Source of the DNA: Patescibacteria group bacterium
GTDB lineage: Bacteria > Patescibacteriota > Microgenomatia > UBA1400 > MFAQ01
Assembly: GCA_018819325.1 (NCBI GenBank)
Contig: JAHJQJ010000083.1
Location: 1,067-65,066, forward strand
Direction: 5' to 3'
DNA: 64,000 nucleotides
Each line of letters opens with the position of its first letter. Position 1 is the stretch's first letter. Positions 27,006 through 27,727 of the stretch are shown here, in pieces. Position numbers and translations under genes: made by a program. A model generated the notes under the pieces. The model made no database searches, was not told where the DNA came from, and saw nothing but the letters and a program-made list of their open reading frames with translations.

Positions 27006-27309
27006 CATGTACTCCTCTGTTACCAGAGGCATAGACTATACCTTCATCCTCCTAAAAATCTTAGGATAGGATGTTTGCCGTATTATAAGTGTGTATATTT
27101 ATCCATCAAAGATGGAGGAACACTTATCTTCACCTTGAACATTACTTCAAGGATTCAGTCGTTACAGGGATTATCTTATTTTAAAACATGATAATCTTCC
27201 CTCGGTATTGTCCTCTAAAGCCCTGGGACCATGGCTATAATTATAGAGGATTTCACCGATTTGGACAAATTTTTCTTTCTCCACATTACTGTGGAATGTA
27301 GCATTTTTT
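27006..27309 (-). ncRNA. Putative ORF-less group I intron (~304 nt) splitting the sarcin-ricin loop (E. coli ~2655)
   Basis: Removing it restores CTCTAGT|ACGAGAGGACC. The 5' exon ends in U and the intron ends in G; a P1 helix UAGU/GCUA is possible; it shares GGGAAGAU, GACUGA and AUAGUC segments with the second intron. Confidence 0.6.
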
Positions 27310-27461
27310 ACTAGAGACAAACTCCCTCAAAAATCCAACGCTGGCAGCGGATAGAGACCGACCTGTCTCACGACGGTCTGAACCCAGCTCACGTAGCGCT
27401 TTAATGGGCGAACAGACCAACCCTTGGGAGCTTCTTCACCCCCAGGATGCGCTGAGCCGAC

Positions 27462-27727
27462 CAAATGGCTCCATCTATTACTAGTGGTTTGGACTATATC
27501 TTTCAAAATTAATTACCTTTTCTTATCCTTTTGGTAACTAAATTGAGTTGGCGTGTGTACAGTTCTCCAATGAAGAACTATCTCAATTCCGATTAAATCG
27601 GAATATCAGTCTCTACGGGGATCTCGATCATGGATCGGATCTTCCCACGGGGTTAACCTTTGGTTGTTCATTTCCAAGGCATTCTCCGTTATTAGCCAAC
27701 TTTATCCTCGACATTCGTTCTTGGTTT
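27462..27727 (-). ncRNA. Putative ORF-less group I intron (~266 nt) after the equivalent of E. coli U2504 in the peptidyl-transferase ring
   Basis: Removing it restores ACCTCGAT|GTCGGCTCA. The 5' exon ends in U and the intron ends in G; a P1 helix CCUCGAU/GUCGAGG with a U-G pair at the splice site is read directly from the sequence. Confidence 0.65.

Follow-up and report, generated by a model that had tools for sequence, protein, structure and literature searches.

Two probable ORF-less group I introns of IA-like architecture in the sarcin-ricin loop and the peptidyl-transferase ring of a CPR-like 23S rRNA gene

The only 23S rRNA gene of the window (the whole stretch of 64,000 nucleotides that was analysed, to which all positions refer) is interrupted by two inserts, one in the sarcin-ricin loop (SRL) and one in the ring of the peptidyl-transferase centre (PTC). 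It is highly probable that they are two independent, ORF-less, IA-like group I introns that are removed by the standard two-step transesterification. In this reaction, a guide sequence located just inside each intron would pair with the end of the 5' exon to form P1, placing the last exon U in a U•G wobble, and an external guanosine, bound at P7, would attack the 5' splice site. The terminal G of the intron would next take the same P7 site, and the freed 5' exon would attack the 3' splice site, resulting in ligated exons and in the restoration of AGUACGAGAGGACC and CCUCGAUGUCGGCUC. As far as can be judged from sequence and fold, splicing of both introns would be either autocatalytic or protein-assisted.

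The 23S rRNA locus and the position of the inserts

The 23S rRNA gene covers positions 26756 to 30266 of the minus strand (Rfam LSU_rRNA_bacteria, 2243 bits) and has a length of 3511 nt, as compared with the 2925 positions of the Rfam model. The 5S rRNA gene is located downstream in the same operon (26532 to 26648, minus strand; Rfam, 83.6 bits), a tRNA-Ala(UGC) gene was identified upstream of the 23S rRNA gene by ARAGORN and Rfam (30462 to 30537, minus strand), and no 16S rRNA was found by Rfam within the 64-kb window. The genes flanking the rRNA locus, encoding SecA, a class I release factor, FtsX, and a class II aminoacyl-tRNA synthetase, are ordinary bacterial genes. The 23S rRNA is 68% identical to that of E. 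coli, as is found for bona fide CPR loci, and the host is a CPR/Patescibacteria-like bacterium.

The E. coli reference was the annotated rrl copy of strain Nissle, which itself contains an insert of about 360 nt. Because this insert confounded the comparison with the unspliced gene, the window introns were removed before alignment; the Nissle insert was corrected for, and E. coli positions were counted from the 3' end of the gene using the canonical length of 2904. After removal of both inserts, the exons (2941 nt) are collinear with the E. coli 23S rRNA and keep all universal motifs, and the bases at the two junctions correspond to U2504/G2505 and U2656/A2657. In this comparison of the spliced form, no further insertions of more than 31 nt were detected; the window side shows only one other difference above 12 nt, an expansion by 31 nt around E. 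coli position 285.

Intron 1, with a length of 304 nt, spans positions 27006 to 27309 of the minus strand and follows U2656 in the SRL (site L2656, corresponding to the "2657" or 23IS14 site discussed below); its assignment is based on Rfam, fold, and covariation. In the RNA sense of the minus strand, from 27309 to 27006, its junctions read ...GUCUCUAGU / AAAAAAUGCUAC ... GGAGUACAUG / ACGAGAGGACC, and the predicted ligation product is GUCUCUAGU-ACGAGAGGACC, with CUCUAGU-ACGAGAGG at its centre. The boundary is ambiguous by a single nucleotide (A) and was fixed on the basis of the U/G rule and of family members whose intron starts in G (2 of 104 among the matches listed). Intron 2, also ORF-less and 266 nt long, spans positions 27462 to 27727 of the minus strand and follows U2504 in the PTC ring (site L2504). 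Its junctions, from 27727 to 27462 in the same sense, read ...GCUACCUCGAU / AAACCAAG ... GCCAUUUG / GUCGGCUC, or, in an alternative extract of the 5' junction, ...GCUACCUCGAU / AAACCAAGAACGAAUGUCGAGG...GCCAUUUG / GUCGGCUC; the boundary is unambiguous and the predicted ligation product is ACCUCGAU-GUCGGCUCAG, with the junction CCUCGAU-GUCGGCUC. An earlier note on this DNA had delimited the same two inserts, and the minus-strand reading with its collinear exons confirms their ends to the base.

The inserts would not need to be removed if the gene were an rRNA pseudogene or if the contig were chimeric or misassembled. The source is a metagenome-assembled genome and a 16S rRNA is absent nearby, which would fit this explanation, but the exons retain their universal motifs and their collinearity with E. 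coli. Furthermore, the window sequence is 100% identical in the contig of an independent NCBI assembly (GCA_018819865.1, JAHJPM010000013.1), so that an assembly artefact is unlikely, and a Logan contig is identical to the window as far as its own end within intron 1. Considering also that intron 2 is present with 98.9% identity at a separate metagenome locus (L206) and that homologous introns reside at the same sites in hundreds of other genomes, a defective or artefactual gene is hardly credible.

Group I architecture and relation of the two introns

Both inserts follow the group I rules that the earlier note had proposed for them, namely, a 5' exon ending in U, a final G, and a guide sequence that pairs with the exon end (UAGU with GCUA and CCUCGAU with GUCGAGG). 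In intron 1, the exon end UAGU (U2653 to U2656; 27310 to 27313, minus strand) together with the first A of the intron faces the internal guide sequence UGCUA (27299 to 27303, minus strand), resulting in a P1 of only 4 to 5 bp with U27310 in the U•G wobble at the splice site. The P1 of intron 2 comprises 7 bp, formed by CCUCGAU (C2498 to U2504; 27728 to 27734, minus strand) and GUCGAGG (27706 to 27712, minus strand), and terminates in a U•G. The guides are conserved in the respective families, and P1 yields no covariation because the exons are invariant. The terminal G (omega-G) was read from the sequence at positions 27006 and 27462 (both minus strand), respectively, and neither intron has more than a weak P10. 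The sequence AGUAC, close to the 3' terminus of intron 1, mimics the exon junction; owing to its lack of conservation among the family members, it was not considered further.

The group I core, consisting of the P3-P6 and P7-P9 domains and the P3/P7 pseudoknot, was located in both introns. Intron 1 possesses P1, P2 (GUAA loop), P3, P4, P5/P5a, P6, P7, P7.1, P7.2, P8, and P9 (GUAA loop); intron 2 possesses P1, P3, P4, P5, P6, P7, P7.1, P7.2, P8, and P9 (GUAA loop). The folding from P1 to P9 suggested in the earlier note hence accounts for all canonical helices with the exception of P2, which is absent from intron 2. All pairs of the located helices are standard, except for one A·C in P4 of intron 2, and unconstrained minimum free energy (MFE) folds of both inserts recover most of the canonical helices. 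P7, the proposed guanosine-binding helix, is formed in intron 1 by GACU (27157 to 27160, minus strand) and AGUC (27034 to 27037, minus strand), the latter being preceded by J8/7, GAAGGUAU; in intron 2 it is formed by GACU (27608 to 27611, minus strand) and AGUC (27492 to 27495). The helix is invariant in the family of intron 1 and in all 27 family cores of intron 2, and it therefore provides no covariation evidence.

Two hairpins, P7.1 and P7.2, are inserted between the 5' strand of P7 and the 3' strand of P3 in both introns and in their family members. They occupy positions 27085 to 27152 of the minus strand in intron 1 (P7.1, 27133 to 27152; P7.2, 27085 to 27127) and 27559 to 27604 of the minus strand in intron 2 (P7.1, 27586 to 27604; P7.2, 27559 to 27581). 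This arrangement suggests an IA-like subgroup for both. We take these hairpins, combined with a compact P5, to be the features that liken the window introns to the phage T4 td intron and to subgroup IA of the Michel-Westhof classification. The td intron resides in a protein-coding gene and not in an rRNA gene, and the endonuclease families involved differ from those of the relatives of the window introns.

A search of the whole window with the Rfam model Intron_gpI (RF00028) returned intron 1 with 61.1 bits (E = 4.6e-13), which is above the threshold of 50 bits. Intron 2 scored 26.1 bits in a 1-kb search (E = 2.2e-4) and thus remained below this threshold, so that the Rfam check proposed in the earlier note supports the first insert only. 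A homologue of intron 2 at another locus (L178) was also below the threshold (33.2 bits; Rfam, single locus), which indicates that the low score is a property of the model and not of this copy. Since the Rfam model alone would fail insert 2, comparative evidence is needed in its case. The E-values argue against chance matches, as does the large number of homologues inserted at identical rRNA sites. Features of a group II intron or of an archaeal bulge-helix-bulge intron were not present in the inserts, and both possibilities were rejected.

Extra sequences of another kind, fragmenting intervening sequences, are known in bacterial 23S rRNA genes. If the inserts were of this type, RNase III or another nuclease would cut them out without ligation, leaving a fragmented 23S rRNA. 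Short non-intron insertions are also present in CPR 23S rRNA genes, according to a recent survey (Tsurumaki et al. 2024, J Bacteriol, PMC11270868), and the RNase III intervening sequences of Salmonella, Leptospira, Coxiella, and others likewise lengthen the bacterial 23S rRNA gene by sequence that is not found in the mature ribosome. However, the latter are found in variable helices, where they form an extended stem, whereas the window inserts interrupt the universally conserved SRL and PTC ring, and in the MFE folds the ends of each insert are joined by only 6 pairs in place of a long terminal stem. Moreover, a complete group I core supported by covariation is present in both inserts, together with a U•G in P1 and a terminal G. 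An origin as nuclease-processed intervening sequences is accordingly very improbable.

The earlier note had also described the two inserts as related and as devoid of a homing endonuclease. The latter is the case, since no ORF for an endonuclease of the LAGLIDADG, GIY-YIG, or similar type was found in either intron and the longest sense ORFs correspond to 37 and 28 amino acids. As to the relationship, the core-like blocks GGGAAGAU, GACUGA, and AUAGUC that it had listed are indeed common to both introns, and their global alignment has a z of 5.6 over shuffles, with 69% identity over the aligned positions. The hidden Markov model (HMM) of the L2504 family, built with the window excluded, matched intron 1 with 59 bits, and that of the L2656 family matched intron 2 with 18.6 bits. 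The scores against the families of their own sites were 88.5 bits for intron 1 and 131 bits for intron 2, and because these are far higher, the two introns are not recent copies of each other. The claimed relationship thus holds at the level of a shared structural type, to which both belong, and not in the sense of recent duplication. CPR introns at L2593 matched the HMMs of both families at up to 61 bits and are about equally similar to them.

Intron families and empty sites

The family of intron 1 was identified by scanning one genome per species for a G replacing U2656 before ACGAGAGGACCG, in combination with downstream 23S rRNA landmarks, which provided at least 119 loci. The 5' splice site was placed by a rule of complementarity to helix 95. 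An insertion could be delimited between YUAGU and ACGAGAGG at a minimum of about 104 of these loci, and the site is occupied in the representative genomes of more than 100 species. Among the matches listed, family members show AAGAUAUAGUCU and a GNRA-capped P9 upstream of the junction, and 99 of 104 contain the guide UGCUAC, which is invariant in an alignment of intron 1 with 14 ORF-less relatives. The conservation of the terminal G and of the 5' junction motifs is partly circular in both families, as the search patterns required them. In the alignment with the 14 ORF-less relatives, RNAalifold recovered P2, P3, P4, P5, P6, and P9, and 29 of the 40 pairs showed compensatory changes. The lengths of the SRL introns are bimodal, with at least some 24 measuring 285 to 500 nt and at least some 75 exceeding 650 nt, most of which have 730 to 920 nt; the product of the long forms is a single-domain protein of the LAGLIDADG_1 family (37.1 bits) with about 159 amino acids. 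Among the matches listed, 93 of the 119 loci carry CPR lineage labels. Several loci are labelled as Pseudomonadales, Gammaproteobacteria, or Planctomycetia; their 23S rRNA is 69 to 75% identical to that of E. coli over more than 500 aligned nt, and since this is as distant as in bona fide CPR loci, these labels were distrusted.

No L2504 introns were found by motif scans in the genome loci of the SRL scan. BLAST searches with the flanking exons revealed clear homologues of intron 2 at three genome loci (L080, L091, and L120), and a metagenome scan with the pattern ACCUCGAU-A-N(2-20)-GAAUGUCGAGG provided 101 contigs. From the metagenome contigs and these three loci, 57 complete PTC-site introns were obtained: 20 are ORF-less, with 257 to 403 nt, and 37 are longer, with 527 to 989 nt, of which 36 exceed 650 nt. 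Where anchors could be placed in introns longer than 800 nt, the extra 490 to 660 nt are located within the P6 loop, and the one ORF tested from the long introns belongs to the LAGLIDADG_2 family (138.9 bits). Two introns have lengths in between (403 and 527 nt) and seem to contain decaying ORFs. Full-length alignment with MAFFT misaligned the region from P7.1 to P8, and RNAalifold missed P3 and P8; therefore, covariation was assessed on cores of fixed offset that were delimited by conserved junction motifs. For the 27 distinct core sequences, pairs were counted in P3, P4, P5, P6, and P7. In the true register, 92.4% of the cells were paired, as opposed to 32 to 41% when the 3' partners were slid, and compensatory changes were observed in 15 of the 31 pairs, a result equalled by none of 500 shuffles. 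P3 alone occurs as GUUGGC/GCCAAC, AUCAGC/GCUGGU, ACCAAC/GUUGGU, AUCAAC/GUUGAU, and AGUAGC/GCUACU.

Empty sites were found for both introns among relatives, as the earlier note had suggested looking for. At the metagenome locus L206, the 23S rRNA is 99.5 to 100% identical to that of the window and the L2504 intron is conserved (see above), and the SRL is uninterrupted (...GGGAGTTTGTCTCTAGTACGAGAGGACCGAGATGAGCC...), such that the BLAST alignment skips from window position 27309 to 27005. Two further loci (L130 and L144, the latter also syntenic with the window), with a 23S rRNA 94.5% identical to that of the window, keep the PTC intron and have an intact SRL that equals the predicted ligation product. 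The reverse pattern, an SRL intron with contiguous exons at 2504, was observed at L031, L053, and L071, which have the most window-like 23S rRNA among the genome loci listed (about 74 to 82% identity). Each intron is therefore optional, and the natural intron-less SRL allele is identical to the ligated exons that the group I rules predict. This allele, the P1-P9 fold, the family covariation, and the Rfam score of intron 1 agree with the group I-like nature that the earlier note had assigned to both inserts.

Both introns lack an endonuclease within families whose longer members carry LAGLIDADG genes, and are for this reason regarded as products of the cycle of homing-endonuclease gain, decay, and loss. 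Mildly interesting in its own right is the presence/absence polymorphism of the SRL intron between near-identical 23S rRNA genes, given that this intron has no endonuclease of its own. Among the matches listed, no relative of intron 1 exceeds about 78% identity, and the closest one comes from a distant host. Since this is the case and L206 precisely lacks the SRL intron, the ORF-less intron could have entered the lineage very recently without an own endonuclease, through reverse splicing or the action of an endonuclease in trans. If true, this would represent natural, endonuclease-independent group I mobility into a universally conserved ribosomal site. We consider this scenario unlikely; a precise loss of the intron in the lineages of L206, L130, and L144, or ORF decay after normal homing, is more likely.

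Alternatively, the introns could fold as group I introns without being self-sufficient ribozymes, and their splicing in the cell could depend on a protein acting in trans, supplied by the host or by a LAGLIDADG maturase gene at another location. This would modify the preferred explanation of two group I introns and leave their fold unaffected. Many organellar IA and IB introns require proteins in vivo. The short P1 of intron 1 and its lack of a convincing P10, as well as the missing P2 and the A·C mismatch in P4 of intron 2, would be compatible with such a dependence, and homing endonucleases may double as maturases, as mentioned by Tsurumaki et al. (PMC11270868). Against it, both introns are free of a LAGLIDADG gene and their core is complete and conserved; in addition, ORF-less members persist across many lineages in both families, so that a maturase encoded in cis is not required. 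Protein dependence is thus conceivable but rather doubtful, and the preferred reading remains that of two introns removed by transesterification, with or without such help.

Relation to known rRNA introns and significance

Position 2504 presumably figures in older compilations of intron insertion sites, and to our knowledge position 2656 does not. The earlier note had placed the SRL site outside the insertion sites familiar to it, and in this respect it has to be corrected: apart from its occurrence in the more than 100 genomes described above, the site is listed as position 2657, or 23IS14, a frequent group I and LAGLIDADG_1 site of CPR 23S rRNA genes, in PMC11270868. Searches of the literature for L2656 or L2504 by site name returned nothing relevant, and the combination of sarcin-ricin and group I led to structural-motif papers only.

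According to Tsurumaki et al. (PMC11270868), 82% of CPR 23S rRNA genes have insertions, of which 433 are group I-like and 222 of these ORF-less. The group I sites 23IS6 to 23IS14 are concentrated in the 3' part of the 23S rRNA, around the peptidyl-transferase centre; LAGLIDADG_1 predominates at 1917, 1931, 1952, 2593, 2604, and 2657; and 23IS9, -10, -11, -13, and -14 were new for bacteria in 2024. With reference to Brown et al. 2015, the same source states that the transcripts of CPR rRNA genes are free of such insertions. Bacterial rDNA introns outside the CPR had earlier been known only at L1917, L1931, L1951, and L2593 (Haugen et al. 2007, PMC1995217).

Intron 1 and 23IS14 share the SRL site, the group I type, and LAGLIDADG_1 in the ORF-bearing relatives. 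The patchy mixture of ORF-bearing and ORF-less forms is also common to 23IS14 and the SRL family, and the window copy is an ORF-less form of 304 nt. The coordinate of 23IS14 derives from a coarse comparison with E. coli, whereas the junction is placed here after U2656. Intron 2 resembles 23IS9 to 23IS11 in that both are group I introns in domain V of the CPR 23S rRNA, with ORF-less and LAGLIDADG-bearing members sharing the site, and it differs in that its ORF-bearing relatives have a LAGLIDADG_2 gene in P6. The text and supplement of PMC11270868 contain no coordinates for 23IS9 to 23IS11; L2504 may correspond to one of these sites.

Another point of comparison is provided by the L2593 introns of cyanobacteria, organelles, and CPR, inserted at an I-CreI-type site. 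These are also located in domain V of the large-subunit rRNA and possess the same P7.1/P7.2 extension, as described by Haugen et al. 2007 (PMC1995217), and they carry single-motif LAGLIDADG genes. They are inserted at a different position from the window introns and use a different guide sequence, and no L2593 intron is present in the window 23S rRNA gene.

The SRL is hence already documented as a frequent group I site of CPR, and the window introns add members to known families. They confirm that a ribozyme requiring precise excision can reside in each of the two most conserved functional centres of the large subunit, a point already established for CPR. The single group I model of Rfam misses the L2504 family, with the consequence that annotation pipelines leave such rRNA genes looking broken. 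Finally, closely related population members that differ in the presence of the SRL intron are represented in public metagenomes and could serve to study intron gain and loss.

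Layout of the rRNA locus

The rRNA locus occupies positions 26532-30537 of the window in the order tRNA-Ala, 23S and 5S, and the whole 64-kb window contains only one tRNA gene. No 16S rRNA gene was found anywhere within the 64-kb window, and the 16S of this genome is unlinked. Positions in the 23S gene were numbered by the copy of E. coli Nissle 1917 (L223, NZ_CP007799.1, 4464057-4467326), which has an annotated length of 3270 nt and carries approximately 360 nt of extra sequence at about position 2212 relative to the spliced 23S of the window. Apart from the introns, the sole length difference from the E. 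coli 23S that exceeds 12 nt on the window side is a 31-nt expansion near position 285 (window approximately 29956-29986).

Group I introns in the peptidyl-transferase centre

In 26 of the 27 distinct sequences of the L2504 family, a non-canonical mismatch within P4, either A·A or A·C, is retained; it lies at columns 33/59 of the core alignment A3 and at window positions 27685 and 27651. Two loci have L2504 introns of intermediate length (L141:4213-4615 and L184), with P6 loops holding 155 and 230 nt. These segments look like decayed remnants of a LAGLIDADG_2 gene, and the intermediate lengths fit a cycle of endonuclease gain, decay and loss. Neighbouring sites are occupied by group I introns in other CPR 23S genes: L2500 introns, with the guide sequence UCGGGGUGC, are present at nine loci (L028, L048, L050, L054, L063, L065, L068, L083 and L107), group I introns at about L2511 at two (L016 and L094), and L2593 group I introns at many. 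The window 23S has no intron at L2500, at about L2511 or at L2593.

The sarcin-ricin loop across genomes

CPR-type introns in the sarcin-ricin loop (SRL) also occur in assemblies named Pseudomonadales, Gammaproteobacteria, Planctomycetia or Undinarchaeota (L031, L053, L071, L103, L043, L078, L100, L105, L112 and L109). Where more than 500 nt could be aligned, their 23S genes share only about 69-75% identity with that of E. coli. It seems that either the taxonomic assignments cannot be trusted or the contigs were placed in the wrong bins. Among the listed matches of the SRL scan, CCUAGGACGAGAGG, a U2656-to-G change in a loop that is universal apart from such cases, was read in four non-CPR MAGs (L006, L044, L086 and L101), from Vicinamibacteria, Alphaproteobacteria, Kiritimatiellae and Verrucomicrobiae. 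Since three of these four are long-read Microflora Danica MAGs, the change may be a systematic sequencing error.

Three metagenome contigs whose 23S genes are 94-100% identical to that of the window keep the L2504 intron and have an uninterrupted sarcin-ricin loop, with intron-less junctions at L206:2393-2407, L130:1232 and L144:11620. This pattern means that the ORF-less SRL intron was recently gained or lost inside one species-level lineage.
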